From NCBI GenBank assembly GCA_023645945.1, contig JALAIB010000039.1:1-42903 (forward strand): a stretch of 42,903 nucleotides of DNA, in the 5' to 3' direction. A program made the translations under genes and the position numbers. Below the pieces are notes generated by a model, which made no database searches, was not told where the DNA came from, and was given only the letters and a program-made list of their open reading frames with translations. Below are positions 12,528 through 42,903 of this stretch, piece after piece. The DNA is from Diploschistes diacapsis (taxonomy: Eukaryota). Each line of letters opens with the position of its first letter. Position 1 is the first letter of the stretch.

Positions 12528-12902
12528 CGTATGGTTTGGCAGCACTATTGGCGGGTCGCTACATATCAAAAATGAGTTAAAAGCGAGCCTGAGATAAAGA
12601 CATATGCGGTCAAAAAAGTTATATTATCAAATGATAACCCATGTAGGTGCTCCTTTGCAAGTTGGGGAAGAGGAGGGGGTGTGATGCACTGGAGCGCAGT
12701 GCCGCGGCCGTTCCTGTTGTGACGTATAGCGGGCCTTACCGCATAGGAGGTCTTCTATGTGAATGGCATGTTAAGAAGCCTTTCTCACGTTGTGCTTATC
12801 GTCTTGTAGTTTTGCCCATAAAGAATTTCGATTATTCAGTCGAGATTGAACTGGCAGGTCGACATAGTATTGCAAGCCGCACCGATCCAGATATTCGAGG
12901 AT

Positions 12903-13771
12903 ATGGCTTCCTCTCCAATCCAACACAAAGCTTTCCTGAATGTCGATCTAGGGGAGGCTGTAAGAATCTTCTTTCGTTAGCAATGTAAGAAAATAATAAA
13001 AATATAGTATGGTAATTATGTTTGCGGGCCGGATCTCGAGCTTCTGCCCCTGATCGATCACGCAAACGTGGCATGCGGCTTTCACGCTGGAGACCCTCTC
13101 ATAATGATGGAGACGGTCAGAAATTGCAAGAAGCATAACATCAAAGTGGGTGCTCACCCGGGCCTGCCAGACATCCAAGGTAGAAGACACAGCAGCACTA
13201 TGTTCAATCTCCATTGCTCATACGTTACTGAGGATTCGGACGTCGTGAAATCAAGATGTCTCCAGACGAGCTAACAGCGAACACGAGATATCAAGTAGGA
13301 GCTCTGAAGGCGTTCTTAGACGTCGAAGAAGTTCCCTTGCACCATGTGAAGCCTCATGGAGTACTCTATGGTATGATGTGCCGGGACTATGAGACCGCAC
13401 GAGCCGTGATGGAAGGCATTCCCAAGGGCGTCCCTGTATTCGGACTGGCGGGAACCGAGATGGAGAAGGCTGCAAATGATCTGAAACTCCCTTTCTGGGC
13501 CGAAATGTACGGGGATGTCAAATATGACCGGCATGGAATGCTGGTCATCGATAGGAAAAAGAAAGCGTGGGCAATCGAGGACGTGCGAAAACATGTCGGC
13601 CAGCAGCTCAACTCGCAGTCTGTCACAGCTACCGATGGAAGCGTTGTTCAATTGCCTATCAGGGATTACCCTATTTCGGTGTGCTGCCATTCGGATTCAC
13701 CTGGGTGTCTAGATATAGTCAAGACGACGAAAGAGGTCATTGATGAATTCAACAAAGGACACGGAAGATAA
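12903..13771 (+). CDS. lamB: LamB/YcsF (PxpA-like) lactam utilisation protein
   Basis: [52 protein letters not shown]. Introns 12960-13007 and 13180-13232. Divergent from the lamA-like gene. Confidence 0.92.
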
Positions 13772-17300: not shown

Positions 17301-18097
17301 AGCATGTTGTTATAATCCGAAAAAAGATGTTTGCAGAAGATCATCCTAATCAACTATCGTCGCAGCATATGCTCGCAATGGCATATCTTGAAGACGGACG
17401 AGTTAAAAAGGCGGCTGAACTGCTCGAGCATGTTGTTACAATCCGAAAAAAGATGCTTGCAGAAGATCATCCTAATCAACTATGGTCGCAGCACATGCTC
17501 GCAATGGCATATCTTCAAGACGGACGAGTTGAAAAGGCAGTTAAGCTGCTCGAGCATGTTGTTACAATTCAAAAAAAGACATTTGCAGAAAATCATCCTG
17601 ATCGACTATGGTCGCAGCACGTGCTCGCAAAGGCATATCTTCAAGACGGACAAGTTGAAAAGGCAGTTGAGCTACTCGAGCATGTTGTTACAATTCAAAA
17701 AAAGACATTTGCAGAAAATCATCCTGATCAACTATCGTCACAGCACATGCTCGCAGAGGCATATCTTCAAGACGGACGAGTTGAAAAGGCAGTTAAGCTG
17801 CTCGAGCATGTTGTTACAATCCAGAAAAAGATGCTTGCAGAAAATCATCCTGATCAACTATGGTCGCAGCACATGCTCGCAATGGCATATCTTCAAGACG
17901 GACGAGTTGAAAAGGCAGTTGAGCTGCTCGAGCATGTTGTTACAATCCAGAAAAAGATGCTTGCAGAAGATCATCCCTCTCGAATCAGATCAGAACGTCT
18001 GCTTTCCAAATCTCATGAAGAGCAACGACGGAAGGAAACACTGGATCAACACAAGCAGACCAATGATAATCTCAATTCAAAGTCATGCCAAGTATGA
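14301..18097 (+). CDS. Fungal NLR: SesB-like alpha/beta hydrolase + NB-ARC + TPR
   Basis: IILVHGLRGHP, RVWTYGYNA, IIFVAHSLGG (nucleophile Ser), FLGTPHRGS, DANHTQM; P-loop GLGGVGKT; Walker B WLLIVDN; 42-aa TPRs. Introns 14378-14430, 14789-14838, 14890-14950, 15239-15297, 15584-15641 restore one frame (first donor least certain). Confidence 0.9.
16960..17980 (+). repeat. About eight 126-nt TPR-coding tandem repeats, the last five nearly identical
   Basis: Recurrent GCAGAARATCATCCT...TCGCAGCA...GCATATCTTCAAGACGGAC...GAGCATGTTGTTACAAT units. Confidence 0.92.
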
Positions 18098-23694: not shown

Positions 23695-25513
23695 ATGCTC
23701 TGTGAAACGATATTCGACTAACCAGCCTGAATTCCGCGGCAAACACCCCGAGACGATTACGCATCTTCTCCTCGCTGCTACGTAAGATGGCCGCGGACTG
23801 TGCGCTTCGCTGACCAGCGGACTAGCTTCTAAGATCGCTGTGCATGCTGGTATGGACGAGAAGGTGGCAGCGGAATGGAATGGGCAGCGCCTCTGGACGT
23901 ACGAATGGGATCGCTACACTCGGGGCTCGTTTATACCGTCGAATTATCAAATTCTGCGGTATCAATCTCGCAATCCGAAGCTCGAGTACCGGGAATTCGC
24001 ACTGATACCCGCTGCGTTTGGGGAGGATGATCAAGCGTCTATTGACCAGGCTCTTAAGCGCGGTCGGCCAAGTCGTTTTATCGATAGCATTCAGAGCTGG
24101 AAGTCGATACGCCTTTCTTCTTCATGGTTGCAGACATGCTTGGAAGAGCATGCGGACTGTCCAAAAGCACAAAGTCCTTTAATTGCTACCTTTTGAAACC
24201 AGCTATGCCCAAAAGTATTCATGCCTGCCAGAAGATGTCCCTCCGCACTCCAGTACCAGCTGGCTCCCCAAACGCCTCATAGACAGATCCGACAATGAGA
24301 AGCTGCGTCTAATAGAAACCTCGGAGAGTGCCCCTATAGGCCAATACGCAACCCTAAGCTATTGCTGGGGCAAGAATCCTGACTTTCTAATGCTGACCGC
24401 TGATAACTTGCCCAAGCTGAAGAACCAGATCGCGGAGTTCTTAGTGCCGACGTTTAGAGATGCAATCAACGTAAGTAAGTGTTTGAACATTCGGTACTTG
24501 TGGATCGGCGCACTCTGCATCCTGCAGCGCGGCGAAGGCAGCGCCCAAGACTGGATAGACCATACTACCGCCATGCGGGACGTGTGCACACACTATCTCA
24601 TAAACATCTCTGCCGACAGAGCCGCTGGTGCCGGTGATGGATTCCTAATGCCCTGCAGTCTCGATCTCGTCTCCCCAGTCATTGTTGACCATCCTAAGCT
24701 ATCTGTTCACAGGATCGTGGATTTGGGCCTGGCCCACACCTGCATCAGCCGATCCCCCTTGGCGCAACGGGCATGGGTGCTGCAGGAACGCTGCTTTCCG
24801 GCGCGCGTCCCACACTTCACGGCGCAGCAGGCCTTTTGGGAATGCGTCAGTACAACGCTGGCTTCTGAGGCATTCCTCCAGCGAGTTCCGCTGGCATCCG
24901 ACTGCGGCGCATATTTCAGCGCCGTCCGCAAGACGATGAGCAGTGGAGTCCTGTCATCGCCCCCCTCAAATGGCTTGGGCTGTGATGGGCAGTCGCCACG
25001 GATGGTATCAGATACTCGAGGAATATACATCCGCAAAACTTACCTTTCCGGATAAGGACAAGTTTTATGCCCTGCCTGGCGTCGTGAGCCGAATGCAGCT
25101 TCAGTAGCCAGACGATCACACTGCTGGACTATTCCGGTCTGATTTCCCCCGAGGGTTGCTGTGGGGTATTGCGCCTGAAAGTAACGAGGGATGCCTCCAC
25201 GGTGGTGGCACAAGACGGCAAATACCTTACACCTACATGGAGCTGGGCCTCTCCGGACAGTCCAATAACTTACGCTCTAGCTAAGTCATGTCTTAGATAC
25301 CCACAGGACAAGATACAATTAGCAGATGTCCTCAAGGTGAGCTCGGCTCCCGTAGATCCCAGTCATCCACTGGGACCAGTGAGTGAAGGTGAGCTGCTGG
25401 TCCGCGGCCATGTGTGTAGTGTGTGCTGGGAGTTCGACAATTACGCTCTAGCGGGTGGCCTGCTACAACTTGTGCACCCAGAGGCTAGTCGATATCACCC
25501 CCTTTTGAATTAA
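23695..25513 (+). pseudogene. HET-domain (PF06985-type) heterokaryon incompatibility gene, disrupted
   Basis: WLQTCLEEHADC, WLPKRLID, YATLSYCWG, YLWIGALCILQ (conserved D replaced by G), PLAQRAWVLQER, PTWSWAS, spread over several frames with early stops and frameshifts. Confidence 0.85.
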
Positions 25514-26067: not shown

Positions 26068-28263
26068 TCACATGCTCCCATTCGGTGCTGGTACAGCAGC
26101 AACAGCAGAGGGGTCGAAATACAACAATTGATTCCAGTCGTAGTCTGCCGTTGGATCGAACGATGCCGCCCAATCCATGCCCAGTTCAGCATCGCCGCCG
26201 TGGCCATCCCTAGGATTCAAATCAAAGGAAGTAAAGTAACCGGCGTTGAACTCCACGGAGTTAAAGAACGGGGAGGTCACCTGAGTAAGCACGGCACTGT
26301 TTTGGAGATTGCTCGAAGAGGCTTCAGATCGCACATGCGATCCGGCCCGCTCGATTCGACTTATGCGCACCTTTCCAAAGTATGGGATCGTCGTTTCGAA
26401 GGGCTCCGCGCCCAAGTACATACCGTGATAAGCCATTGTGAGATACTCAAGCACTTCCGCCCCTTGCTCTGCGACTCTGCACTTCATAGCCTTTGATAGT
26501 TGCCGCAGACTCTTGGTTAGCCCGTCGACAAGCGTCCAGTCTTCTGCGTCCTGGAAGTCGTCTCGTCTGGAGGTTGGGGAGAGCAGGCCAATCATAAGAA
26601 CGACAGCTGCACTGAAGGCTTCGAAGTCCATCAAGTCGCACATGATTACGGCGGACACGCTGTTGTTTCGCATGGCCTGATATGCCTTGATCATTTCCCT
26701 CGACGCAGTCAGCGCGCAGCTGCGGCTATGTTCAAAGCCGCTTTCGAAGGACGACTTGAGCATATAAGGTAAATGTAACATCTTGTAAAGCTTGTAGCAG
26801 AATAATTTAATGGTCTGGCGAAGGTAGATCTCTTCGAGAGGCATGGCAAGACTGGGCGATTCGCTCCACCATTCACTGGGAATTTCCTTGAGGTATTGTT
26901 GCACTTCCTGTTCGAGCTGCAAGGTGTGTGAATAGTCGAGGTTGCGTTGGTTCTGGTCTCGGTCAATGATGTGGCCACAGATAATGGCGAGTCCCGCTAA
27001 TAGCCTGGAGGCAGTGGAATAGTGCTTGTTATTTTCTATTGATATACTTGGATGAGAGTCTGATATTGCGTATGGGAAACCCAAGGTCATCGAAAGTTGT
27101 CTATCGAATTGCCATATATGCGCCCAAATCTCTGCATCCATCTCCCGGTTCCGCCTATCATGACGGTGAAGTCCCAAAGACAACGCTGTATTCAGGGCTC
27201 GGCGCACGCTCAGCCAACCCTTTCGTGGTTTGCCCATGTTGATAAACAATTTGGCTTTGAGCAGGAAACACTCCAGAACTTCGACACTGCTTTCCGACTC
27301 AGCGTCTACTGCGGCAAGAAGAATCTCTGCGCCATCCATATAGGCCCCCTGTAAAGTGTTCTGATCAGCCGGCATTTTAGTCTGTAACCAAATGTCTTCT
27401 GGAAGCTGCTGCACACACAAGGTCAGCCATAGTATAGCTTTGGCAATAGTAACAGGATCCTGAGACTGTAGCGAATTGAGAATGAAGTCCCTTCCTGCAG
27501 TCAATCGACTAGATTGGCTTAAGGTAGTTGAACTGAACGGAATGTTGGTAGCTGCGGGCTGCACAGGCCATATAAGCCAGAATTTCTCCGTCGAATCTAG
27601 TATTAACGTCAAATCGTTAGGCTGCGGTATAAGCGCCTTTAGAGCGTCAATGCTAGCTGTGATATGCCTCTTGTCCGCAGGACCAACATAACCTTCGTCA
27701 TCCCCCTCGTTCGTCGGCTGGATCACCATTGCCTCCTTAAACAGATTCAGAAGTGGTGCATCCTGAAGACGATCGGCCTCACTGGAGCATGGTCTGAGTT
27801 CATCCGGGTTGGACCGGGTATTTTGCTCGTCTGCTCGGTCTTTACGTGTAAACTCTCCCGCTCGGTCCTGGGTTGATGAATGCGAAGACACTAGGCGCCT
27901 CAGTGCTTCCGATGCTGTCGTTTCAAAGTCAGAGAGATTTGAGCATTCAACGTCAAGATCGACCGCTTTGCAGATACGTCGGACCATCTGTTCGAGATCG
28001 CCGAGTCTTTGCTGCAGATTTTCTGAGACCCCAGTGCCGTTATCGCCTGAATCAGAGCTGCTGAGGCCTTGCTTCCTACATGGAGTATTGTGTGCAGCGC
28101 ATTCCTTACACACTGAACTTTGATGGACAAAGACGCATCGAACCTTCCGCCGCCGGCATTCTATGCAGCTCCGTGTGCCCAAACGCATTTTCTTTGGCAA
28201 ATTCCTCTGCACGCCGTGCCGAAGAGCTTCATGGCCACGTTGGGTTTCTTCGAAGGTATTCAT
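26068..28263 (-). CDS. Zn(II)2Cys6 transcription factor
   Basis: CIECRRRKVRC-x7-CKEC-x6-C cluster; middle-homology motifs (ALSLGLHR, IWQFDRQLSMTLGFP, LHLPY). 731-aa intronless ORF. Confidence 0.93.
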   Translation of the reverse strand: MNTFEETQRGHEALRHGVQRNLPKKMRLGTRSCIECRRRKVRCVFVHQSSVCKECAAHNTPCRKQGLSSSDSGDNGTGVSENLQQRLGDLEQMVRRICKAVDLDVECSNLSDFETTASEALRRLVSSHSSTQDRAGEFTRKDRADEQNTRSNPDELRPCSSEADRLQDAPLLNLFKEAMVIQPTNEGDDEGYVGPADKRHITASIDALKALIPQPNDLTLILDSTEKFWLIWPVQPAATNIPFSSTTLSQSSRLTAGRDFILNSLQSQDPVTIAKAILWLTLCVQQLPEDIWLQTKMPADQNTLQGAYMDGAEILLAAVDAESESSVEVLECFLLKAKLFINMGKPRKGWLSVRRALNTALSLGLHRHDRRNREMDAEIWAHIWQFDRQLSMTLGFPYAISDSHPSISIENNKHYSTASRLLAGLAIICGHIIDRDQNQRNLDYSHTLQLEQEVQQYLKEIPSEWWSESPSLAMPLEEIYLRQTIKLFCYKLYKMLHLPYMLKSSFESGFEHSRSCALTASREMIKAYQAMRNNSVSAVIMCDLMDFEAFSAAVVLMIGLLSPTSRRDDFQDAEDWTLVDGLTKSLRQLSKAMKCRVAEQGAEVLEYLTMAYHGMYLGAEPFETTIPYFGKVRISRIERAGSHVRSEASSSNLQNSAVLTQVTSPFFNSVEFNAGYFTSFDLNPRDGHGGDAELGMDWAASFDPTADYDWNQLLYFDPSAVAAVPAPNGSM

Positions 28264-29351
28264 TCCAAAGAGCCGCTCATTTCGAGATTTTGGCTAAACG
28301 ATGTGGGCTAAGGCTCAACCTGATGGGTGAACATATTTGCCATTGAACCGTCAAAAGCTGATATTGAATTGTTTAGTGAAGGGCCAATGAGCTTTTTGGT
28401 TGTTGCCTAAAATGCATCTCCTGATTAGTAAGAGAGCATAGCAGTGAGCAGTAGCTTTCATAAAAGGGCACCAAATTAATGCAAACCCCGTGCATAAAAT
28501 TCACGTTCATTTTTGGCCCCTATTAAGCAATACTGAGCATCCAAAACCGCGGTGGATATCCGAACCTGTAACTCCCACATCCAGATAGTATTCTACATTC
28601 CTTGCATCCTTCGCAGGTGTTGCTGCTCTTTTTTCTGCTTGCCTTGCTCTGCCCTCATGACGTGTTCTGCCTACCTGCGGCCTCTCTCAGCCTTCTAAGA
28701 TAGGCGAAGTGAAGAGCGCAGGTACTTATTGAGAGCTTGAGGTGGCTCTTGAAGTGGGCTTTCTACATTGCTGTTGTCTGTGTGAGCTGCAGTGAGTGGC
28801 ACGGATGTGCCGCCTAGCACCTCTACCACAGTCCTTGGCCGGTACTCGAAACCCCATTGGCAACTCGAGACATCGTTGGCTGGTGATGGCACTGCTAAGC
28901 ACTCAAGATCCTGCTGGTTGCTCGAAGAATATGCGCCCAAACCTCAATCATTGATACAAGCTGCTCACCATCCTCAAGAATACTGACCAAGCGCGCTTGG
29001 TACGTCTGGGATCAATGTCTTCATAAGAATTGTGCGCGGTTATCGAGGCCCTCTATTCCATGGTCCGCAGTGCAAGCTTGGAAGTTGGTTGGAGGGGTTG
29101 CTTTAGAGTGACCTCTCTGCGTTCTCCACCTGTAGGTTTTGTTTGACTCGCGACGCTAAAGGAACCTGAGCCGCCTATGAATGATGAATAAGCACGCTAT
29201 TAGAGGTGGGGAGAACGTCGGTTTATGATAGAAGCTCAGATGCGAGCGTGAATAAGGCGGGTCAATCAAGCCCTTCAACAATTACTGCCCAGCGATGAGA
29301 TAGGAATCTGGTATTTTGAATGACAAATGATCAGTTGCTTGGTCACTCGCA

Positions 29352-29522: not shown

Positions 29523-30173
29523 ATGAGTCTCGCAGCACAACTCGCCAATACCTTCGAAGCTTTCCAAAAGAATGCACCAGATGCAGCAAAGAACCCTATC
29601 ATCGCCGCCAAAGACAAACATGTACGAACCTTTGATACCTCCAAAGCCATTCAACCGGGCGAGAAGCTTCCCGAATTCGCCCTCCCTGACGCCACAGGCA
29701 AGGAGGTGAGTAGCAAGAAGCTGCTCTCTCAGGGCCCTTTGCTCATCACATTCTATCGTGGCGAATGGTGCCCCTTCTGCAACCTGGCCATTTCAGCCTT
29801 CCAGAAGCATTTGCCCGAAATCAAGGCCAAGGGGGTAAACCTTGTGGCCATCTCGCCCGAGCTACCCAACCAATCCCTCACCACAATGGAGAAGTACAAC
29901 CTCGAGTTTTCTGTGCTGTCCGACGAGAGCAACAAGCTCGCTAAGCAGCTAGGCTTGCTATTTGCCATGCCAGATACCCTGAAGCCAGTGTTTGAGATGT
30001 TCGGCACCGATCTGAAGAAGCGCAACGGAGATGACTCGTTTGAGGTTCCTGTTCCTGCCACAATGCTGGTGGATCAACACGGGATCGTCAGGAACACTTG
30101 GGTTGATCCAGACTATACCAAGAGATGCGATCCGAAGACGACACTCGAGTGGATTGGCGCTATGAAAGCATGA
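29523..30173 (+). CDS. AhpC/TSA peroxiredoxin-like thioredoxin-fold protein
   Basis: PEFALPD, LLITFYRGEWCPFC (CxxC), VAISPE, VLSD, PVPATMLVD. Intronless. Confidence 0.9.
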   Translation: MSLAAQLANTFEAFQKNAPDAAKNPIIAAKDKHVRTFDTSKAIQPGEKLPEFALPDATGKEVSSKKLLSQGPLLITFYRGEWCPFCNLAISAFQKHLPEIKAKGVNLVAISPELPNQSLTTMEKYNLEFSVLSDESNKLAKQLGLLFAMPDTLKPVFEMFGTDLKKRNGDDSFEVPVPATMLVDQHGIVRNTWVDPDYTKRCDPKTTLEWIGAMKA

Positions 30174-30399
30174 TTCAGGAAACGGGGGCTTTCTGCGCTT
30201 TCGATTGCTTGGCGTAGGAGGTTAGGGGCTTTAAATGCTGTGGTCGCGAGCTGGCAGGTCTAATAAATCCAGTCCACCCAGCAATAGCGTGTACCAGTAC
30301 CTGCATACTGCATCAACTAATACAAACAGAATAGTGCAACCATATCATCACACCAACATGAACATAAAGCCAGGGCACTCCCGACCATTTAATATCCAA

Positions 30400-31678
30400 T
30401 CAATCTTCCTTCTTCTGATGACCATGGGACACCTGGTAACCGCTCTGCATCTTTTCATGCTCCGGCAGCTCCCATCCTTTCACTTTCTCATTTAGAATCC
30501 ATCCAAAAATGAGATCCAGCCTCACGAGAGAGCCCAACCACATGAGCCGCTGCATGATAGCGATAGTAAAGGCATCCACGGTATTTTGTCGAAAAGGCTT
30601 GGTTGACCAACTCCCTTTCGTATTTGATTCATGAAGGGCCGGAACTTATCCTCATACGCCTTGAGCGCTATCGTAAGACACTGCTTGGTATCATCTCCTC
30701 GATCGGCAGCCCCTCCGCAGTGTCTCCCAATTTCCCCAGCTAAGACATAAGCACCTATAATAGCGCAAGTAGTGCCCATACCGATATCCGCCGATGGACA
30801 GTAGGCAGCGTCTCCCACAAGCGTTACACGGCCCTGGAACCAAGAATCCAACTTAACGAGGCCTTGACGCTCGCAGTAAAAGTTGTCAGCTTCGTTTGAT
30901 GACTCTGAGATGGCTTCGACTTGCCACCCTGCGCCTCGAAAACCTTTGCGAAAGCTTTTTTCTCCTCCCTGACGTCTCCCCTCCAAACACTGTTGAGTCG
31001 TTCCGAAATGCTCCTGCAGGTTATGTATACCTGCATTTCATGCCGGTTGTGCCTTCGGGTCATTACGGCCCGTCCTCCAGGAGCAATGTACGATGTAGCG
31101 ATGTACTCTTCTCCGTGTTGCATTGGCCGAGGAATTGTGAAGTATGCTACGCATTCATCGAGCGAGCGAAAACCGTCCGCGACGTCGGATCCGAGCATCA
31201 TCTTGCGGGTGCGCGATCCTTGGCCATGAGCACCGATAAGGATATCAAATCGGACCTCAAGAGAGCCACCCTTCTCTTCAAAGCTTTCAATCGACGTCCC
31301 AAAGATGTACTTTGCCCGATCTTTCGTAACGTCATACATAATCCAACAGAGGTCTCGTCTCATTATCTCGAAGTCGCTGGTGATACTTTGCACACCTTTG
31401 CCTGACTTGTTTGCTGGGAAATAGACCTGGCATCTTCCTGAGCGGTCAACCACCTGCAGACCCTGCTCCGGGGCTGCTTTGGAGCGAAAAGCATGTTCGA
31501 GACCTATACGCTTCCTGACTTCGCTTCCATGCCCATGTAGATCTAGCTGAAGGCCGTTGACCCTTAGGCCTGGGAAACGTTCGATGACGGTTACGTTGTG
31601 GCCGAGCTTCGAGAGCCAGAAGGCGACGGCGTTGCCGGCGATTCCTGCACCGTTGATGAGGACCTTCAGTCCCGCCAT
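30400..31678 (-). pseudogene. FAD-dependent monooxygenase (FAD_binding_3 type), frameshifted
   Basis: GAGIAG, LIGAHG (normally GADG), VTLVGDAAYCPS. Frameshift near 30940 (AKVF / RGAGWQ in different frames) and another near 30570. Confidence 0.8.
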
Positions 31679-32366
31679 AGTCTGACAATTGTTGTGAGCG
31701 CTCGAATTGTGACAGAGTTATCACATGAGATAGGTGGATCCTGGTCAGGTTGACGGTAAGAAGCGGTGTTGATATCAAGCAAGATCTCTGCTCGCTTAAG
31801 GCCGACCCCAAAGATCTCATCTGATTGGCACAAACGGCTAGTTTCAATTGAAAGTTGTTGAAAGAAGTTCCCAGACGATCCTCTCAATATGTCGGCGCAG
31901 GCAGTAACATCGTCATTTCAGCTTCGGATAGTATCAGACCTCGGAGTGCGAAGACCAGAACCACGTCGGGATTTCTCAATAACTTCCGAGTTGCCCACTC
32001 GGTCCCCTTTCTAAGGAAGAAGGTGAGAGAGCCGGCTTTGTCAGAGGTGGAGGTTCAGTCAGAACTTACAAACGAAATACTACTCCAATGAGTCGTCCCC
32101 CTTAGTAAGTTCTTCAAGGAGCCACGAATTAGGTGAGTTCCACAAATCTTAAGACGTATGGCTGCATCACACTAGGTCCTAAAGTGGACGAATCAACTTG
32201 AAGTACATGGACCGTGAACGCTGAGGCTGTTGCCCTATTCCTTTCATCGTCATATCATCGCTATCTAATGGTTTAGTAAGGTTTCCCTAACGAGCACTAT
32301 CGCGAGCCTTGTTGTTGTATGGACTCAACCGCGTTGATAGCCATAAGCCATCGATTGACTATCTGC

Positions 32367-33261
32367 TTACTTCTTCTTCTTGGTCACACCTCCATCCACA
32401 GTGATATCTTGTCCCGTAACAAAGCCCGCGTTAACAAGGTACTCCACCGCATCTGCAATGTCCTTTGGTCGCCCAGCGCGATTCGTTGGGTGATCTTCGA
32501 CATCCTTATCTTCGTTAAGCTCCGCCCACTGCGTGCCCTTCTCATCGCCATCCTTGCTCTCGTGCGCAACCTTGATGCGGCCCGGCGCCACCAGGTTGAC
32601 TCTAATGCCCCACTGCGACAAACTGATGGCCATGCTGTGCATGAGACCCAGCTGCCCGGCCTTGGTCGATGCGTAACCCTCTTGATTAGGATCTGACTGG
32701 AGCGCACGGAAGGAGCCGATGTGGATGATGCAGGGGCCGGCGTCCGACTCGTTGTGGTGGGCTGCGTCCTTGCTGTCTTCTTGCTTCATGTACGGCAGGC
32801 AGGCTTGTGAAACGGCAAACGGCGCTGTAAGGTTCGTTTCGATGTAGCTGGGCGCTCATATGTCAGTATAGTCGCAAACTAGCGTCGTAGATAGAGGTTC
32901 CTCTCATAACTTACGCTTGCCACTGAGAGATAGTATCGAATTCTGCCATGGTTTTCCCGTCGCCCCAGTTCGGTGTCGCAATACCACCGTTGTTGACAAG
33001 GACATCAATTCGGCCACCAAGCCAGTCTGCAGCTTGCTTGACCCTATCCCGGATCTCATCCACTGAGCGGAGGTTGCAGATGGTCGACTGGACTTGCTTC
33101 TTGTCGTAGTATTGCTTCAGGTGCACGGTAGTAGTGTGCTTGAGCTCTTCCTCGTCAATATCAAAGATGGAGACTTTGTAGCCGCGTTCGAGGAAGCGCC
33201 GAGCGATGCAGCGGCCAATACCCCTCGCACCGCCGCTGATAACTGCTGTCTTGGAAGACAT
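32367..33261 (-). CDS. Short-chain dehydrogenase/reductase
   Basis: SGGARGIG, VLVNNGG, YASTK, VNLVAPG, FVTGQDITVDGG. Intron 32914-32848. Confidence 0.92.
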
Positions 33262-34018
33262 TGTCGTCACAGCTTTGATTGTTGTTCCAATAGCTGAGAA
33301 CACACGTTGGCTTGTTGGTACAAAATGGTTGAGAGACGAAATTATTGGAGATCCGGCTTTCGAATAACTCGCCGTAATGTTGTTTCGTCATCGTGATGAA
33401 TATGGGGTTGTTCTTTCTTTTACACTGGATCAGTCTTCTTGCTGTGTACTACCTTCCCCTCTCAAAAGAATATTTTCCAGACTAACACGAAGCTTACAAC
33501 GATCGTGATATGGGCGGGCATGGAATAAGTAACCTCACCTCATCGAACGTGCTGAGTGTGGTTCCCTTTTTCAACTTAACTTGCAATGAAAACATATTGA
33601 TTATTCATTATTTCTGTACTAGAAGGTGGTAGGTTGGTGGCTTTTCCCTTCAATTGTCCTAGTCATCAATTGCTTCCACGAGAGATTCTCTAATCACCCA
33701 TGCGCTCCATGGGTATATATACCTTTATATCGCCATATATCTTGTAATTCGCTGGGTCTCTTATAAGGAAGAACAGCATGCTCTGGAAAATGACGTGCTG
33801 ATTGCACAAAACGCCGTTGTGGCCTTCAACTGAAATTCATTAACGAGCATGGGCGAGCTCAATATATCTCCTCCTGCACCCGCAACTTAGGGATGTGCTA
33901 GACACAGTACAACTCGTCCGCACCATCTTCCAGCAACGGCACTACAGATTAAAGATGCCACAGCAGGTTTCATGCCACCTGAATGGTCATCATCGTTGCA
34001 TTTCCTACCCGTGCGCAT

Positions 34019-34461
34019 TTAAGCCTGTGAGGTATCAGCAAGTAAACGCTTCGAACGAAGTGCCTTGGGCAGTACCTGAGCCTCTCTTTCCTCAACACCA
34101 TCAACATCTTCGGTGAAATTGGGTTGCCGGAATACCTACAATAGTTTTGTGAGCACACATACGACTTCAAAGTTTGCTTCGTACTTGAGCCTCTCTCGTC
34201 TCAACGCCATCAACGTTGTCAGTGAACGTGGGCTCACGGAATGCCTACAACCATTTAGTGAGTAACTAGGAGACTGACGTTTGAGCCATACTTGAGCTTC
34301 TCTTCGTTCGAGAATCTCCGGATCTTTCATCTCATGTCAGCCCAGTCCATTCCACTCCTGAATTATTTTTTCGACCTACAAGGATCTGGCCGAGTGATAG
34401 GCACAGCAGTGGCAAAGGCGCTCAAGGCAGCCAAGACTACAGAAACACATACGATATGCAT
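34019..34461 (-). CDS. 79-aa secreted repeat peptide precursor (putative RiPP precursor, UstA-like role)
   Basis: Exons 34461-34380, 34323-34292, 34244-34185, 34135-34076, 34024-34019, with four GT-AG introns of 47-56 nt carrying branch-like sites. Product MHIVCVSVVLAALSAFATAVPITRPDPYPEILERREAQAFREPTFTDNVDGVETREAQVFRQPNFTEDVDGVEEREAQA*. TATATAA at 34554-34548. Confidence 0.88.
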
Positions 34462-35191
34462 AATCGACGATCGGCCTTGGACGAAGAGATGTTCAAAGTA
34501 AGAGAGCAGAAAGCATCGATACTTCAGCTTTGGACGGGTCGAGGGCCTTATATAGGTCCACCCGGAAGCTTCGCAACAGAAATAAGAAGCGTTGCTAAGG
34601 TTCTATACACCGATCGTCCAGCATTACACTCATCGCACCCTTGCAGGCTTCGGGCAATGGAACAATGACAGGTAGACAGTGAGACATCTCCAGCCGGCGT
34701 GTCATACGGTATTTGAGATGGAACGGTACATCTTCAGTAGGCCCAAGACCAATTTTCCTAACCGTGTCCTGCAGTCTATAGCAATCGAGGACAGGACATT
34801 TACCCGATGAGTAGATCTGAGTTGGGCTTAGCGCTACTTGACTGGATGCCTTCGAAGGAAACCCGACGTTACATAGAGCTGCTGCAGTTTTGGCAGTTTC
34901 TTTGCTATCACCGGCCAGCCTCTTACGTGTAGGCCCACTGCTATAAGTCTTGGTTACTTGAACTAGTTTCTGCCAAGTCTGATGCAAATCTGGCTATAGG
35001 ATCCGTGCCTTGGTCCAATATCAACCCCTTTAAAGCAAGAATAGTACTTCCTCTTTTGAAAAGCAGAGGTCACAAGGGAAACGCGGCCCTGTTCGCAGCC
35101 TTATCTCTGCCGTTGGAAGCTTGGGGGGATCCAACGCGTACATTAAACCCGCGGTCAGTCTCTTGCCCTTGCGCGTTTTGAACACCTCACA

Positions 35192-36230
35192 ATGTCCGTT
35201 ATGTCCCCTCCAACTAGGATCGAACGCAAGTCACTCGACTGGGAGCTCCGCTCGGAGACTTCGAAAGACTTTCTTCTTGGCGCTGGCCAGAAATCACAAC
35301 CAGCAACCTTTCCGAAGAATCCAAAACGGCTCTTCATTGCCCTTACTGTCGGGAATGCAGTCTTCTTCATTGCAGGTTGTCTTGTATAGTTGCTTCTAAT
35401 CTCATCGAAACAAGATCACAAAAAGAAGTGGAAGGCTGTATCTCTATACTGTAAGCAGCAAAATATATACTGAGTGTCTACTCCTCTAACGGTGAGCAGC
35501 TCCCATCTTCGACAAAGGTATAAACTTCGACCTAAACGAATCCACCATGAATCGTACACTCTGGGCTATGGACGAGTCGACTTCAATATACATTCAGGAT
35601 CCGAGTCCCGAGGTCGACGCAGCTTGGGAGTATATCTCGGCCTATGCCAAGCCTATCATCACCATTGATCGAGCAGAGGTGACGGCCTTGGGGAGGGATC
35701 CAGATGTCATTGTCAAGGCACCTGATGAGTGGAATATGGGGGACGCTGCCTACCCAGCTCAAATTAACGTATTTCACGACATACATTGTCTCAACATGCT
35801 GCGCAAGGAGATGGTAACCGGTCCACTGAAATCGCCCTTGGTATCGCAGTCACTAACATGCAGAATATAGTGGTGGGATTACTATTACCGTTCAAGGTTT
35901 GGCGACCGTGCAAACCAGCCGTATCTTCACGTTAGGCACAAGCGGCACTGCCTCCGCAAGGTCCTCCAAGCACTAATGTGTAGCGCTGATGTGGACATCG
36001 TGACGCATAATTGGAGACGCGGGACCCTTCATCCAATAGCTGATTTTGACAACCCACGAAAATGTAGGAACTTTGAGAGCTTAGTAGATTGGAACAACAT
36101 AAATGGAGTTCCCGTCGACGAAGAAGCATGGCGCACCATCAAGCGGCCAGATAAGGCCGTAGTGCTGCCGAAGGCGACACCAAATTTGTACACGCCTGAA
36201 GACAGTGAGGAGTGGATAAACTCAATTTAG
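35192..36230 (+). pseudogene. UstYa-like DUF3328 oxidase with in-frame TAG
   Basis: N-terminal TM helix, SLYSP, PSPEVDAAWE, FHDIHCLNMLRK, HKRHCLRKVLQALMCSAD, CRNFESLVDW. Introns 35451-35499 and 35814-35870. Single TAG at 35387-35389 within the TM helix. Confidence 0.88.
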
Positions 36231-37858
36231 CTCAGCTATTGTCGGTTACAATCGCCACGTCGTCCAGGGTGTGATCTAGGAGGCAGGAACTTGTCCGCTT
36301 GCAGCCTTGGATATCGCAGCTCATCCTTGTTTGACTTGACTTCAGCGCGAGCGGCATCTTCGCCTCGACTGCTGACCCTAGAGTGAGTACGTGGGACTTT
36401 GAGATGCAAAACTGAGCGAGCTCGTAGTGCATACTCGGGTTGAGAAGTCTTCTCGCTTATATTGTATAATCGGCAGCGGTTATTGTGACGGTTAATTTTG
36501 GCAGATTGCAGACGCTAAGCTACGTTCCCTCGAAAAATACAGAGCTACTTAGATTTGTATGTAGATCCCATATCAATTGAAGTAGTACCCATAGTCTTCC
36601 CAGCCAGAGCAAACATTATGCATTTTATATTGCACTTTCTCTCACCCAAAATCCTCCCCCAGTTGCTGCTCATATCTTTGAAATCCAAGTATTTATTTGC
36701 CTTGCTTGCTGCTCCAGCCACTAACTACGCCAACCCACTTGTGTACACCCGATTTTGCACACTGCCAAGATAATGGTCAGAATCCTTTATTGCAGTTCCT
36801 AGCGATAGCGGCAGGTGTTCACACCTCAGCCATGACTATCTATCTAGAGTTAGTTATCTTAGAGCGATGGGACTAGCTGACAAGTTGTGGAGTGTGGACT
36901 AAATAAGCGAACTGAAAACTGCAACGTGGGCAGTCACATCATTTTAGACTATAACTAGTAGGAAGTAGAACACGTTGTGGATCCCGTCGTTACGTCAATC
37001 CGTAACTTCACATCAACTTGGGCCTGCTCGGCGATGCCTCAATCACATACTCGCAAGAAATAGGATCCAGGTTCGGAGGTGATGCTTTCCTGAAAAGCGG
37101 TAAGGGGGGATGACTACGTCCCCAAGCTACTTCCTAGGAATACAACTTGTGCTCGGCTAAATTACTCTTTCTCTTGCCATATGCTTCAAGGGATGGATCC
37201 TCGAGGCATCGAAGTGCGAATATACCCCTCAAGACGAAGACGGCTGGGCCGCAATCGGAGACGGAAACGCATAACATGGCAATTAATGGGGTCTTCACTG
37301 CATTCACTTGCGTGGTAGAATCTAACATATACGATTCTGGGGCGAAATAGCGTCAAATGCTAAGCGAAAATACTGCAGCGATAGCTCGCTGAGCTCCAGT
37401 CTCCTCGGCTGAAGCTCGCTATTCCCAGCTTTGCTTCCACCGCTTCTGCCAGGACTCTGTCTTGATCTAAATCTGACAGTCTGTGGCCATAGGAAGTAGA
37501 AACTAGGCACTGGAACTATAGCGCTAGACTGTGTGCAAGGTGGATTTCCAATGAACATATGAGACAAGCGGTCGGTCACGGCACGTCGATACGGATGGGT
37601 CATCCCGACCAGGATAACTGGGGGATTTATTGTCTTCTCTTATGCGGAGCCTCGTGGTGATTGTTCTGGTGATTAAAAGTATCTGGAGGTTCAGTTTGTG
37701 GAGTTCCACCGTGTCCTTCTTTCATCCTTCCATTTACCTGTCTCTACTCTTTGAACGTCGTTGCTTGATGGCCACTGGCTCACAAAGTCGACGTTAGACA
37801 ACACAATTTGACCTTATTCAGCACCGCTGTCTCTTGAGGGTCGGAAAGGCTATCAAGC

Positions 37859-38812
37859 ATGGCAATTTATTCTGAGCTCCCGCAGGAGGAGAGGTTTGTC
37901 CCTTTAGAACCGGATGTGGTAGGGAGCTCGGAGCGTCCATGGAAACGATTTGCTATTCTCTGCAGCAAGGTTACCATATGTCTTCTCGCTGTTTGGGGCA
38001 TATTTGACATCGCAAACACTTCGATAGTTGCAATATCAAAGACCAGAACGGCGGAGACAATGGCAGAGATCGCATCACTAACGATCCCTTCCTCGGCTAC
38101 CCAGATTGAGTCTATTGCGGCGTCGCGACCGGTCCTAGAAAACGGCTACGTGAAGCGTCCTTCGAAGAGCTCATGCAGATGCGGTAGTACAATCAGCGAG
38201 GCTCTTGCGAATGATTGCAAGTACGACTCTCATGCCACAGCTTGGTTGCCGCCTCACTGCCGGGATGATGAACTACTCGAAGAATGGGAACGGTCTGGTC
38301 GGGGTCCTAACGGGGCATGGGAGTACTTTGCATATCCAAGTCGAAATCAATCTCTCACCGTGGAAGAGGTATCAATGCTCGCGGACACAGGCGGATCCTT
38401 CTGGATGACCCATGAGTGGCACATTATGGTAAGCTCGCCCTACCTTTTCTTGCTTAGCTTGTGAATGTGGAAATGAACGAAAGGAAAGAGAAAAGCACCG
38501 CTACCATCTAAGGCATTACTGTATTTGCAGTTTTTTCTTGAATGGTAATGATTTACTCCCCTTGTTAATCCAGACAAACCTGCCTACCCCAAACCACTGA
38601 CGTTGTGATAGCACTGCGCATTCTCTTGGCGCAAGCTCTTACGGGCTCCGGTGACCGGAATCACAATAGATAGGCGTACCGACGGCCTTCACCATATCAA
38701 ACACTGCGAGAAGAATTTTCTGCGAAGAGTTGATATTCATCAGATCGTAACTGTCTCGGGCGTTTCTCTGGATGCAGATGAAGGAGAGGACATGGAAATT
38801 GGACCTGCATAG
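37859..38812 (+). CDS. Second HxxHC oxidase (DUF3328-related subfamily)
   Basis: TM helix; CGSTISEALANDCKYD..AWLPPHCRDDEL. Intron 38429-38611 joins WHIM|HCAFSWRK; second motif HIKHC; stop 38810-38812; 256 aa. Confidence 0.8.
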
Positions 38813-39877
38813 TGATTGTTGCATAGAATGCGAAAGCTCCCACAGCTAGTATGATTGGATTTGCATATGTGGGTTTTCTACGGAGATAAACCATTAAACC
38901 CGAAGACTTATTATAGTCCTGCGCTTCGATACAGCTCCATTGCAGCAAGCTTCGCGTGGCAGATGAACGCTTTGAGACATCTTTCAAGTCGAAGTTGCAA
39001 ATGGCTTCGGTGCCATTCGGAATAGAACAAGTCCGACCAGGGTCGCCCCTTTTGGAAGAATTTCGTCCTGGATTCTAAGTCGGATGTAACAGTGGCGATG
39101 TGATTAAAGAGGAAGGGCCTGGGAGGGAGGGGGAAGGGTGGTATAAATACTGGCCGGACTCGGAGTTTAGGGTTTGTACTTTTCTTGCACAACTTTTATG
39201 CTCCGCCTTAATTTAGGACATGTATATAAATGGCTTAACGTTTCGCTCGAGTAATGTAGTTCACATAACTTTACGGTTATGGTTTTATCTTCTACACCCA
39301 CCTGCATTCATTTTATTAAATCTTTTTTAGGCGTTGTTTTAAATCGAGCATAATAATCTTCTTTCATTTTTTCAGGGACGTGGAAACGTTTAATAGTATC
39401 TTGTTTGAGCTGAAAGGGGTGGCTATTTGCGGGCATAATGAATGCTTAGTATATGGATAAATTAGGGGACTAATTTATGCGATTAAAAAACTTATCCTCG
39501 GTATTTATAGCTTCAATATTAGTGGAATTATGTGAGTTTGGAAGTTGGATTTTGTATTCTTCTTTGTCTCGCTCCTCCTGCCACCATATATATGTTTTAC
39601 CATCACTCCTTGTTTACCTGTGCAGGCGGTCAGCCGGAGCAACAGAGGCTGCGATTGATTAGAAATAGCCGTTCCGTAGCCTGGAAGAAAGAAGCGACTG
39701 TGACCTCGATGACCTGATGTCGGCGATCGGCATCCTGTGTAATCAGCCTGGCTGTATCCGAGTTGACACTTGCGTCTTGCTTTAAAATGCCCGCTTCATC
39801 CACAATCAACAATCGAACCTTCAAAGGTGTACTGCTTTTCATCAAACATCCTGTTTGCAATAACTTTGCTCTTCGCC

Positions 39878-40935
39878 ATGTCCTATCCGGAAGCCATCTT
39901 CGGCTGCTCCAGTGTCGGAGAGTATTATATGACTCCTGAACAAGTCGAGGAGCTCGTCTCCGTCCTCCAAAAGGTCGGCATCACCCACCTCGATACCGCC
40001 GCCAGATATCCTCCAACCAACCCCGGCCATTCTGAAAAAGTACTGGGGGAGAACAATGTGCCATCTCGCTTCACCTTGGATACGAAGATAAAACTGGTCG
40101 GCTTCGATTCGAAGGGCTCGCTGACGGCGCAAGCCATCGACGACTCCATTGCCGAGCAGTTTTCCCGTCTCAAAGTTACTAGCGTCAACACACTCTACTG
40201 CCATGCTCCAGATACGCAGACTCCTCTTGAGGAGCAGCTGGCTGCTGTCGACAAGCATTATCGAGCCGGAAAGTTCAAGCATGTTTGTCATGCCTTCTCC
40301 AATCCCTCTACGCCTGTCCACTCACGAAATTGATGTAGCTTGGAGTAGCGAACTTCTCGGCTCAGATGGTCAATGAGATGATTCAAATCGCCGAGAAGAA
40401 GGGATATGTCAAGCCTACGGTCTATCAAGGGCACTACAATCTCATCTGCCGAGGGCCTGAAGCCGAGATCCTCCCATTGCTGAAAAGGCATGGGATTAAG
40501 TATAATGCTTACAGGTGTGTTCGCTCTCTGATGGTTAAGTTTGTTTAAAGCTAACAATTCGAAAGTCCTTTGGCTGGCGGCTTCCTTACCGGGAAACTGA
40601 CAAAAGGAGAAACATCCGACACTCGTTTCATGGAAGGTAATAAATTTGGCCAGTACTACAAAATGCTATACGATAAACCGGAGATGCACACAGCCATAAA
40701 AGAGCTTGAAAGCATTACTCAGGAGGCAAATCTCAGTATTACCGAGGCAGCTCTCCGTTGGATCTTCTACCACTCCGCCTTGGACAAGAACGACGGAGTC
40801 ATATTGGGAGGCAGTAAGCCCAGGTATCCTGAACAGAACATTGCAGATATGTCAAAGGGCCCGTTGCCGAAGTCGGTAGTGGATAGGCTCGACAAAATCT
40901 GGGGTGTTGTAGAGAATGCTGCCCCAGCTACATAG
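39878..40935 (+). CDS. Aldo-keto reductase (aflatoxin B1 aldehyde reductase/AKR7-like)
   Basis: LDTAARY, LDTK, LYCHAPD, LGVANF, PTVYQGHYN, AYSPLAGGFLTGK, AALRW. Introns 40283-40338 and 40515-40565. Confidence 0.92.
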
Positions 40936-41492
40936 AACAATGTCCAAGTTGTGGAATTTTGGCAAGCGGGAGGCCTTTGCTTAGCCAGAACAACTGTGGG
41001 AGCCCAATCTCTGGCCGTCTCATTCGGATATGTTAGTTCCGCTGTTAGCTGATAGTTGGACTTGGTAAGAAAGTAGACGCGGCTTGTAAGGAAAAACATC
41101 CTGCCGCACGGTTTTGCACCATGCATCAATTCTGTTCTTTGATACCTGTTATTCTGCAATAACATAGTCTTTGCCTACTCTGTCTTTGGGCGAGCCATAT
41201 CTCGGACGAGAGACTATGCATGGCACCTCGCCTCACATGGACTGGGATCAGCGATAGCTGATTGTCGAAGGCCATCTAATATGTCGCTCTACTACAACGC
41301 CATGACCGATTAAGCTTAAGCTTAAATGCTATGCTCTAGAGTCAAGAAGAAAAAGCGGTGAGAGATTGTCCTCCTTCCATGGATGAACTACGCAAGCCAT
41401 GTCCGTTGCTCAACAGCGGTCATAGACTCAAGAGGCCATAAGCCAGCGGAGCTCTGATATCTTGAAACTGCCACTCCACTTCGCTAGAACTC

Positions 41493-42903
41493 ATGTTGGT
41501 CTCTATACTTTCAGAATGAAGTCTGCTCACAGTCCTGCCGCTGTTCCACAGCCTTCCGGTATACTCAGTGCCCTCCTCGACAGAGAGCGGACTGTCTTGG
41601 AGCAACGTGAAGGAGAACCCAAGTTTCAAGGATGTCTCATGGATTCAGGCCGTTTGTGTGACAATTGTGACTCTGTACATTATAAGCAATATCTCTTCTG
41701 CCTTCACCAGCTTCAAAGCGCCTTTTGCTGGATACAGATCATGGCTCGAGCCATCGTGGCTTGTACGCTTACGCTTCTCCCGCGGAGCCCTTCCTATGAT
41801 CAATGGAGGCTACTCAAGGGTTACTTGTGCAAATGCAGTGCGAGCTAAACAAAGCTGACACGGTGGTTAGTTCAAGAATTCCATGTTCAAAATCTCGCGT
41901 AATGACGACGATATACTTATCATCTCCAACAAGTACGTGGAGGAACTACGAACCCTCCCAGATGAAAAAATCAGTGCCATTGGAGCACACATCAAGGTAT
42001 ACTATTGGATTGATAGGAAGATTTCGAGCTAATGAACAGTAGAACCTGCTAGGGAAATACTATTCGATTCTTATTCTTTTGGAGAGCGACTTACACAGTC
42101 GGATCCTGCAAACGAAGTTGACTCCCCAGCTGGCATCTTTCATATCCGTAGTCAAGAACGAGCTAGACTTTGCTTTCGGGGTTGAAGTCCCCAAATGCAA
42201 AGGTACATCCACCACAAACTCGCTGCTCGTTGATAGCCTTAACGAAGACATCTCAGATAGATGGGTCGAAGTCCAGATCTAGTAGATCCTTCTGCAGCTC
42301 ATTGCCCGCATCAGCGCGAGAGTCTTCCTCGGCTACCCAGCCTGCCGCAACCAAGAATGGCTTCACACCTCCATCAAGTACACAGAGAACGTCTTCGCGA
42401 CCGTCATCACTTTCCGCTTCCTCCCCTCGTACCTGCATCCTCTGATCGCCATGTTCCTGCCCCCAGCCTACAAAGTGCAGTCGAACCTTCGCCTAGCCAA
42501 GCGCATCATCGGCCCCATGGTCCGCGAGCGCCGCGCCAAAGCCGAGTCCGGCGACCCGACCTGGGAACGGCCCGACGACCTGCTGCAGTGGATGATCGAA
42601 GCGGCCAACGAGAACGACGGCACGCCTGACAAGCTCGCGCACAGGCAGCTGCTGCTCAGTCTGGCCTCGATCCACACCACCACCATGTCCGCCGCGCACG
42701 CCCTCTAGGATCTATGTGCACACCCGAAGTACTTCGAGCCGCTGAGGCAGGAGATTCTAGAAGTCCTCCGCGAGGACAATGGATGGCAGAAATCCACGCT
42801 GGGAAAGCTACGCAAGCTGGATAGCTTCCTCAAGGAGAGGCAGCGCATCAATCCCCCGAGTCTACGTAAGTGGCATCTCTAACAAAACCCTCCCCCCTCC
42901 TCC
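41493..42903 (+). pseudogene. Cytochrome P450 (ent-kaurene oxidase/CYP503-like), disrupted, truncated by window end
   Basis: GYRSWLEPSWLVRLRF, LESDLHSRILQTKLTP, ARISARVFLG, LSLASIHTT, KLDSFLKE. Introns near 41820-41870, 41997-42042, 42203-42256. In-frame TAGTAG 42280-42285, TAG 42706-42708, and TGA 41517 if ATG 41493 is the start. Confidence 0.88.

Follow-up and report, generated by a model that had tools for sequence, protein, structure and literature searches.

DUF3328 (UstYa-type) enzymes are dimeric, membrane-anchored and O2-dependent two-copper enzymes whose HxxHC motifs bind metal, and members of the family also hydroxylate and halogenate C-H bonds (PMC12435403). Their genes peak directly beside genes for Kex2-processed repeat peptides (KEP): a DUF3328 gene lies near 22% of 7878 KEP genes, mostly in adjacent position, and loci with a repeat peptide and a DUF3328 gene have been predicted in thousands (PMC7329392). 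In the ustiloxin, phomopsin and asperipin-2a pathways Tyr is required and is the residue cross-linked by an aryl ether (PMC7329392). DUF3328 genes serve polyketide and non-ribosomal pathways, too (PMC12048977). Here, a stretch of 42,903 nt from the lichen-forming fungus Diploschistes diacapsis (Ostropales, Lecanoromycetes; contig JALAIB010000039.1), in the following referred to as the window, was analysed with respect to a small gene for a putatively secreted repeat peptide and a UstYa gene transcribed divergently from it, for which an undescribed biosynthetic cluster of the dikaritin type had been predicted. On balance, and with moderate confidence, the pair is explained as a two-gene UstYa-type module consisting of a secreted two-repeat peptide and a divergent DUF3328/UstYa protein, noncanonical in its features and probably decaying in this genome.

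The closest described systems are the asperipin-2a cluster of Aspergillus flavus (aprA, aprY, aprT, aprR) and the ustiloxin (ustA/ustYa/ustYb) and phomopsin clusters. Like the locus described here, where the signal peptide is putative, the very small asperipin-2a cluster has one DUF3328 gene beside a repeat precursor with a signal peptide, and a reductase gene nearby (PMC6514808, PMC7329392). The core of AprA is FYYTGY and its Tyr-rich repeats of about 8 residues are bounded by Kex2 sites, whereas the units of the window peptide are 20 residues long, contain only Phe as aromatic residue and have no Lys-Arg between them. Moreover, the asperipin-2a cluster has a transporter gene, aprT, which has no counterpart in the window, and the UstYa frame of the window is broken. 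The ustiloxin and phomopsin clusters share with the locus a DUF3328 protein with two HxxHC motifs and a secreted repeat precursor, putatively secreted in the case of the window (PMC6514808, PMC12048977), and genes for a P450, a flavin monooxygenase and a transcription factor as in the ustiloxin cluster (PMC6514808) are also present near the window pair. Their 2-5 canonical DUF3328 genes, tyrosinase, methyltransferase and many Lys-Arg-bounded Tyr repeats contrast with the window, where one gene passes the DUF3328 profile, the two repeats are without Tyr, and tyrosinase and methyltransferase were not found among 38 pieces of open reading frames (ORFs). With regard to protein architecture, CctR, ApnU and AprY have an N-terminal membrane helix, a lumenal domain and HxxHC motifs on neighbouring helices (PMC12435403), as is predicted from AlphaFold2 (AF2) models of homologues for the UstYa of the window and for a second HxxHC protein encoded downstream of it.

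In lichen-forming fungi no peptide that is made by ribosomes and modified after translation (RiPP) has been characterised so far according to the survey of Pasinato and Singh (2025), which covers 111 lichen-fungal genomes and reports DUF3328/HxxHC genes throughout the Lecanoromycetes (PMC12048977). Diploschistes diacapsis is listed in the supplement of this survey, its main text does not name Diploschistes, and no repeated precursor is reported there for its two conserved clans (PMC12048977). Judged by titles and abstract openings, none of the papers found on biosynthetic gene clusters of Diploschistes deals with a RiPP cluster. The kind of locus, a repeat peptide with a DUF3328 oxidase, is known, and the species was included in the 2025 survey. 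Compared to the lichen DUF3328 clusters of that survey (PMC12048977), which belong to the same class of organisms and have the same signature gene, the window adds a two-repeat candidate beside UstYa. The new findings are modest: in two species a candidate precursor gene neighbours UstYa, each repeat of the window peptide has its own exon, and this genome shows signs of decay.

The source genome is metagenome-assembled. Gene models were assembled manually on the basis of ORFs, splice signals and homologues, and 38 ORF pieces across the window were scanned against Pfam, for which the cut-off of PF11807 (DUF3328) is 25 bits. For comparison, 14 loci with close UstYa relatives were obtained from metagenome contigs, with a total length of 149 kb; the loci L001-L004 are mutually 98.7-99.6% identical in the region concerned and were therefore counted as one species. 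The right-hand 10.5 kb of the window are ordinary fungal DNA with a G+C content of 44-52% and carry six genes, namely those for a short-chain dehydrogenase/reductase (SDR), the small repeat peptide, UstYa, the second HxxHC protein, an aldo/keto reductase (AKR) and a cytochrome P450. Each of them was found at the place where it had been predicted, and the divergent arrangement of the peptide gene (ATG at 34461) and UstYa (ATG at 35192) across a spacer of 730 bp was confirmed.

The peptide gene is readable only via three or four short introns; the unspliced frame from the ATG at 34461 stops after the hydrophobic N-terminus. In each of three introns (56, 47 and 49 nt), a branch-like CTRAY is found in addition to a GT donor and an AG acceptor. 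A possible fourth intron of 51 nt is in frame and stop-free, and its GTACTG donor is weaker than those of introns 1-3. The N-terminus encoded by the first exon has a Kyte-Doolittle mean of 2.51 over residues 3-20 and was taken as a putative signal peptide. The gene is real enough to have been called independently, with the two inter-repeat introns (introns 2 and 3) of a deposited 71-aa model, P0233, being identical to those of the manual model. P0233 starts at an ATG within intron 1 of the manual model, downstream of the hydrophobic segment and thus without signal peptide, and reads through the fourth intron, which results in an 18-residue tail with one Lys-Arg.

Two full 20-residue repeats, the minimum number, are each encoded by an exon of their own and are identical at 14 of 20 residues and 45 of 60 bases. 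Third codon positions of the coding frame account for nine of the 15 base differences, and the other two frames of the units contain stops or almost only replacements. Because the introns behind both units can be aligned, even if they are much more diverged than the units and contain indels, the duplicated unit appears to have been the exon plus its intron. An nhmmer profile of the two units recovered just these two copies in the window (E ~1e-17; next match E 0.82), and Tandem Repeats Finder returned zero rows over 33800-34600, the copies being 109 nt apart and too diverged. Repeats on separate exons with introns of 47-51 nt set the gene apart from the KEP genes of Umemura (2020), in the main text of which the word 'intron' does not occur (PMC7329392).

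With regard to processing, Arg-Arg precedes unit 1, and Thr-Arg and Glu-Arg follow the units. Lys-Arg is absent between the repeats of the window model and present only in the read-through tail; in the version with this tail, Arg-Arg and Lys-Arg flank the repeat region as a whole. With repeats that lack bounding Lys-Arg, the window peptide probably fails the KEP definition. The only aromatic residue in the repeats is Phe, in place of the Tyr of the relative, and the sole Tyr of the window peptide precedes them. A Phe-initial core, as originally predicted, could not be established; in both units as encoded by their exons, Phe comes second. The candidate precursor departs from the original description in having only two full repeats, in requiring three to four introns and in lacking Lys-Arg between the repeats.

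The assignment of UstYa is firm: exons 2 and 3 match PF11807 with 70.1 and 65.7 bits, respectively, both HxxHC motifs (HDIHC and HKRHC) are present, and there are 410 relatives at E <= 0.001. Exon 1, as delimited by homology, contains an in-frame TAG inside the predicted membrane helix. The residues after the TAG match the conserved K..S.Y / SPIFD stretch that follows the membrane helix in 11 aligned homologues, the first intron is a textbook one (GTAAGC, CTAAC, CAG), and three unspliced homologues have an insertion exactly ahead of PIFD, at the position of this intron. Due to the fact that the conserved stretch after the helix is followed by a textbook intron, exon 1 was assigned to 35192-35450, with the TAG within it. 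In the orthologue of locus L003 exon 1 is open across the region of the window TAG. As the membrane helix is needed for lumenal placement and dimer formation in the characterised DUF3328 enzymes (PMC12435403), the TAG should, by analogy, abolish UstYa function. In six-frame scans of the window with hidden Markov models no further relics of UstYa or of the second HxxHC family were detected. The decay is not isolated: a FAD monooxygenase gene nearby is frameshifted, and in the UstYa genes of L001 and L002 a stop replaces the Cys of the second HxxHC motif, which is intact in L003 and L004, even though the four loci are 98.7-99.6% identical in the peptide gene upstream.

In L001-L004, whose UstYa is 69% identical to that of the window, a small gene is located divergently upstream of UstYa as in the window (in L003 with ATGs at 887 for the small gene and at 1461 for UstYa). 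The small gene of L003 encodes a hydrophobic N-terminus, and its phase-1 intron is placed identically to that of the window gene. After the intron, one exon encodes the rest of the L003 peptide, which contains Lys-Arg at residues 33 and 55, two copies of AYGR and three Tyr after residue 27. With signal peptide, two Lys-Arg and Tyr-containing repeats, it fits the kind of KEP gene found together with DUF3328 genes (PMC7329392). The full-length alignment of the window and L003 peptides scored 49 compared to 23.6 +/- 4.3 for shuffled sequences, and none of 2000 shuffles reached 49. The putative orthology of the peptide genes is based on position, orientation, intron phase and similarity of the N-termini, with no contribution of the repeats. 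The lack of repeat similarity agrees with the rapid divergence known for repeats of this kind, but the evidence is thin. In a protein search, an alignment of 53 columns with the L003 exon as lead sequence retrieved the window's own P0233 as sole hit (1 of 3 candidates). As an observation on the L001 gene, a third, IYGR-containing stretch is located at 1138-1299 on the minus strand, in another frame and downstream of the stop of the peptide model, followed by a good GTAAGA donor; the L001 peptide gene may be longer than the 78-residue model and spliced otherwise.

The pairing of peptide gene and UstYa is regarded as meaningful because DUF3328 genes peak next to repeat-peptide genes (PMC7329392). 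From these comparisons the original interpretation is partly supported: its core idea, a small secreted repeat peptide divergent from a UstYa oxidase, holds, and the pair recurs in the one related species available; the reading as an undescribed dikaritin cluster of six to eight genes is not supported. The module is noncanonical by the lack of Lys-Arg between the repeats, the lack of Tyr within them, the missing tyrosinase and methyltransferase, and the broken UstYa frame. In working relatives, as judged from the family, the peptide would enter the endoplasmic reticulum by means of its signal peptide. A membrane-anchored, lumenal, dimeric two-copper oxidase would then use O2 to cross-link or oxidise side chains of the repeats, and Kex2-type cleavage at basic sites followed by trimming would release the product.

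Several points weigh against an explanation as a decaying module. The comparison of UstYa with the L003 orthologue (proportions of nonsynonymous and synonymous differences, pN 0.21 and pS 0.82, the latter saturated) points to strong purifying selection in the past, and because of this the loss of UstYa would have to be recent or the TAG an assembly error; the latter could occur in a metagenome-derived genome. Additionally, the TAG would be bypassed without loss of the frame by an alternative splice that joins a poor GTTGTC donor at 35376 to the acceptor at 35499, and with the read-through tail Kex2 could release one long peptide. Conservation of the pair is based on one related species only, with the peptide of which the mature part of the window peptide alone shares no significant similarity (its score was reached by 147 of 2000 shuffles), and scans of L001-L004 with the window repeat profile and motifs gave no match. 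Finally, the orthologous contigs are at most 5.8 kb long, with flanks of at most 2.7 kb on either side, which makes the absence of synteny weak evidence.

One alternative is a functional minimal pair. The TAG would be an assembly error or spliced out, the oxidase would modify the Phe repeats by a chemistry other than Tyr ether formation, and basic sites, either single or bracketing, would serve for release of the product. The intact exons 2 and 3 of UstYa with both HxxHC motifs and the strong past selection are consistent with this, as are the repeats, whose differences are mostly at third positions, the in-frame alternative splice, the Arg-Arg and Lys-Arg bracketing the repeats in P0233, and the C-H hydroxylation and halogenation described for DUF3328 enzymes (PMC12435403). 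Opposed to it are the TAG itself, which falls within a stretch that encodes protein in every aligned homologue, the poor quality of the GTTGTC donor, which is two positions off the usual fungal donor and whose use removes the conserved stretch, and repeats without the Tyr that is required in the three studied pathways (PMC7329392). A pair that is still functional in this genome is accordingly considered rather unlikely.

It is quite improbable that the small gene is no RiPP precursor at all, that is, an unrelated small secreted protein or a prediction artefact beside a UstYa gene that is an orphan or a relic of another pathway. Such an explanation could draw on the low number of repeats without Lys-Arg between them, on the lack of a homologue beyond P0233 among the 3 search candidates, on the non-significant similarity of the mature parts, and on the occurrence of DUF3328 genes in polyketide and non-ribosomal pathways (PMC12048977). 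Moreover, a crude scan for Lys-Arg-rich ORFs near UstYa at the ten more distant loci (L005-L014) revealed two ORFs, neither of which is repeat-like, and thus no repeat peptide. It is countered by the independently deposited model with the same introns, by the divergent arrangement, putative signal peptide and intron phase shared with L001-L004, by the bias of the differences between the units towards third positions, and by the enrichment of DUF3328 genes right beside repeat-peptide genes (PMC7329392).

The decaying two-gene module was also weighed against the cluster of six to eight genes proposed in the original prediction. In such a cluster, the SDR or the AKR, the P450, the second HxxHC protein and a Zn2Cys6 transcription factor would tailor the peptide or regulate its formation. 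All these genes fit into 10 kb, or 16 kb if the factor is counted, and those for the SDR, the AKR and the second HxxHC protein look intact. As parallels, the asperipin-2a cluster has a reductase beside one DUF3328 gene, and a P450 and flavin monooxygenases take part in the ustiloxin pathway (PMC6514808). The asperipin-2a analogy is loose because AprR is of the isoflavone-reductase type (PMC6514808), whereas the reductases of the window are an SDR and an AKR. Left of the right-hand 10.5 kb, genes for a peroxiredoxin, the Zn2Cys6 factor and the FAD monooxygenase are located, the latter two as claimed. The monooxygenase reading frame shifts between two conserved stretches (from ...AKVFE to GAGWQ...), and an intron would not fit there. 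The relic is also apparently shortened around its GxDG motif, the usual form in FAD monooxygenases, and reads GAHG there. The Pfam matches of SDR, AKR and P450 are all above the family cut-offs; for the AKR, PF00248 was found in all three ORF pieces (E 1.7e-20, 1.1e-6 and 3e-14), and for the P450, PF00067 in two of six (E 4.6e-6 and 2.4e-5). For the P450, no in-frame ATG was found before the hydrophobic N-terminal segment (ORF 41520-41858), and no convincing first exon was found within 41380-41860.

None of these genes could be connected to the pair. Homologues of the SDR, AKR, P450 and second HxxHC protein were absent from all 14 UstYa loci, and tblastx of window positions 30000-42903 against these loci recovered UstYa only, with short fragments chained in L004 and L014 judged spurious. 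The synteny of SDR, AKR and P450 with the pair, proposed as a check of the cluster, was thus not found, within the short orthologous contigs available. L001 and L002 do carry a further gene downstream of UstYa (3786-4780 in L001), which is a second true UstYa paralogue and not a member of the window's second HxxHC family. In a search for promoter words common to five intergenic regions, a weak test, no 8-mer occurred in at least four and no 7-mer in all five; nine 7-mers were present in four of the five compared to 3.1 +/- 1.7 expected, none of them a CGG-type site common to the regions. CGG-N-CCG sites were absent from the spacer at 34462-35191. With regard to the five-gene definition of dikaritin clusters (PMC12048977), Pfam families for tyrosinase, methyltransferase, transporter or peptidase were absent from the 38 ORF pieces, which for the first three agrees with what had been noted before. 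Because the null results for synteny come from short contigs and are joined by a null result for promoter words, membership of the SDR, AKR, P450 and transcription factor in the module is unsupported, though not disproved. These and the second HxxHC protein are real genes without support for membership in the module. In view of the missing neighbour homologues, the lack of common promoter words, the noncanonical precursor, the broken UstYa and a second HxxHC family that is Pezizomycotina-wide with about one named hit per species, a working multi-gene cluster is very improbable.

The second HxxHC gene is located 1.6 kb downstream of UstYa, and this position is its only tie to the peptide gene. 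Neither of its two pieces matched Pfam at E <= 0.01, and two of six homologues gave sub-threshold UstYa matches (best 18.4 bits, E 0.0021, compared to the cut-off of 25 bits). The prediction of two DUF3328-type oxidases, which had been made dependent on matches to DUF3328-like profiles, therefore holds for UstYa but not for this protein. The family comprises 81 relatives (e.g. P0002-P0010 and P0161-P0232) from Eurotiomycetes, Sordariomycetes and Dothideomycetes, all annotated as 'hypothetical'; Pfam domains, PF11807 included, are recorded for none of them. Because about one named hit per species was found across the Pezizomycotina, including Neurospora and Podospora, the gene looks like a conserved gene and not like a cluster-specific tailoring gene.

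A remote relationship between the two HxxHC families is nevertheless probable. The two motifs are 25 residues apart in 53 of 57 members of the second family and 22-59 residues apart in 87 of 97 UstYa relatives. An hhalign comparison of these sets (57 versus 97 sequences) gave a probability of 61 and an E-value of 8e-5 over 81 columns, with both motifs in register; with 11 versus 11 sequences the E-value was 0.068. The AF2 model of the second-family homologue P0005 (mean predicted local distance difference test, pLDDT, of 82.3) has a membrane helix at residues 41-67 and the motifs on consecutive helices at 172-192 and 203-214. It was compared with the model of a UstYa homologue (pLDDT 88.2) by the order of secondary-structure elements only, which is the same in both: membrane helix, short helix, strand, first-motif helix, second-motif helix and strands. 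Searches of PDB sequences with both family profiles gave no hits, and with Foldseek no PDB entry was found to resemble the second-family model at E <= 0.001 (best E 3.8). The second HxxHC family is thus regarded as a probable distant branch of the DUF3328 superfamily that lies outside the Pfam family, and may represent a lineage of copper-dependent DUF3328 enzymes that has gone unrecognised. Besides the HxxHC motifs, conserved cysteines were observed in this family.

Table 1. Positions of the features discussed. Numbers refer to the window unless a locus is named; positions of exons and introns on the minus strand are given as in the gene models.
Feature	Position	Strand	Remarks
Small secreted repeat-peptide gene, candidate precursor	34019..34461	-	manual model
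Peptide gene, exon 1	34461-34380	-	putative signal peptide
Peptide gene, exon 2	34323-34292	-	ends ...ERREAQ
Peptide gene, exon 3	34185..34244	-	repeat unit 1, AFREPTFTDNVDGVETREAQ; own 60-nt exon
Peptide gene, exon 4	34076..34135	-	repeat unit 2, VFRQPNFTEDVDGVEEREAQ; own 60-nt exon
Peptide gene, 3' part	34075-34019	-	either fourth intron and 6-nt last exon, or read-through tail
Divergent intergenic region, peptide gene/UstYa	34462..35191		730 bp
UstYa/DUF3328 gene	35192..36230	+	PF11807 E 3.1e-19 and 6.9e-18
UstYa, exon 1	35192-35450	+	
UstYa, intron 1	35451-35499	+	
UstYa, exon 2	35500-35813	+	
UstYa, intron 2	35814-35870	+	
UstYa, exon 3	35871-36230	+	including stop
In-frame TAG	35387..35389	+	inside predicted membrane helix of UstYa exon 1; from translation
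UstYa orthologue segment, L001	2777-3139		
UstYa orthologue segment, L002	1642-2004		
UstYa orthologue segment, L003	2133-2495		
Second membrane protein, HxxHC-x25-HxxHC	37862..38812	+	exon 1 37862-38428, intron 38429-38611, exon 2 38612-38812
SDR gene, intact-looking	32367..33261	-	adh_short_C2 E 1.9e-23, adh_short E 8.3e-17 (Pfam)
SDR, exon 1	33261-32915	-	
SDR, intron	32914-32848	-	GTAAGT...ACTGAC...CAG
SDR, exon 2	32847-32367	-	including stop
AKR gene, intact-looking	39878..40935	+	exons 39878-40282, 40339-40514, 40566-40935
Cytochrome P450 gene	~41520..42903	+	3' part cut by window end, probably contig end
Zn2Cys6 transcription factor (ORF limits)	26068..28293	-	Zn_clus E 9.4e-5, Fungal_trans E 8.9e-9
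FAD-dependent monooxygenase relic	30522..31717	-	two overlapping frames, FAD_binding_3 in both pieces

Further genes were observed in the left part of the window. At 8786-13771, a biotin-carboxylase/carboxyltransferase gene (Biotin_carb_N, CPSase_L_D2, CT_A_B, CT_C_D) is located beside a divergent LamB/YcsF gene, a pairing which presumably resembles 5-oxoprolinase or urea-amidolyase-type systems. An NB-ARC and TPR repeat protein, NLR-like and with near-identical TPR repeats of 42 residues, is encoded at 14426-18097, and a HET-domain gene is present at 24183-25513. NLR-like and HET-domain genes are typical fungal non-self-recognition genes.

A wider and highly speculative idea is that of a lichen-fungal branch of UstYa peptides, in which one repeat per exon would arise by duplication of repeat plus intron, release would take place at single basic residues, a Phe core would be subject to copper-dependent C-H chemistry, and the second HxxHC family would provide a further DUF3328-like oxidase. 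Apart from this, the combination of a peptide gene and UstYa in two species is a concrete candidate for a lichen RiPP. The better subject is the form found in L003 and L004, which combines Lys-Arg sites and repeats containing Tyr with a UstYa gene whose three exons are all open. The HxxHC-x25-HxxHC family constitutes a separate lead, being widespread and confidently modelled, with neither a Pfam entry nor a structural relative in the PDB. The copy in the window mainly shows the decay of such a module, and it warns against drawing the borders of biosynthetic clusters from gene neighbourhood alone.

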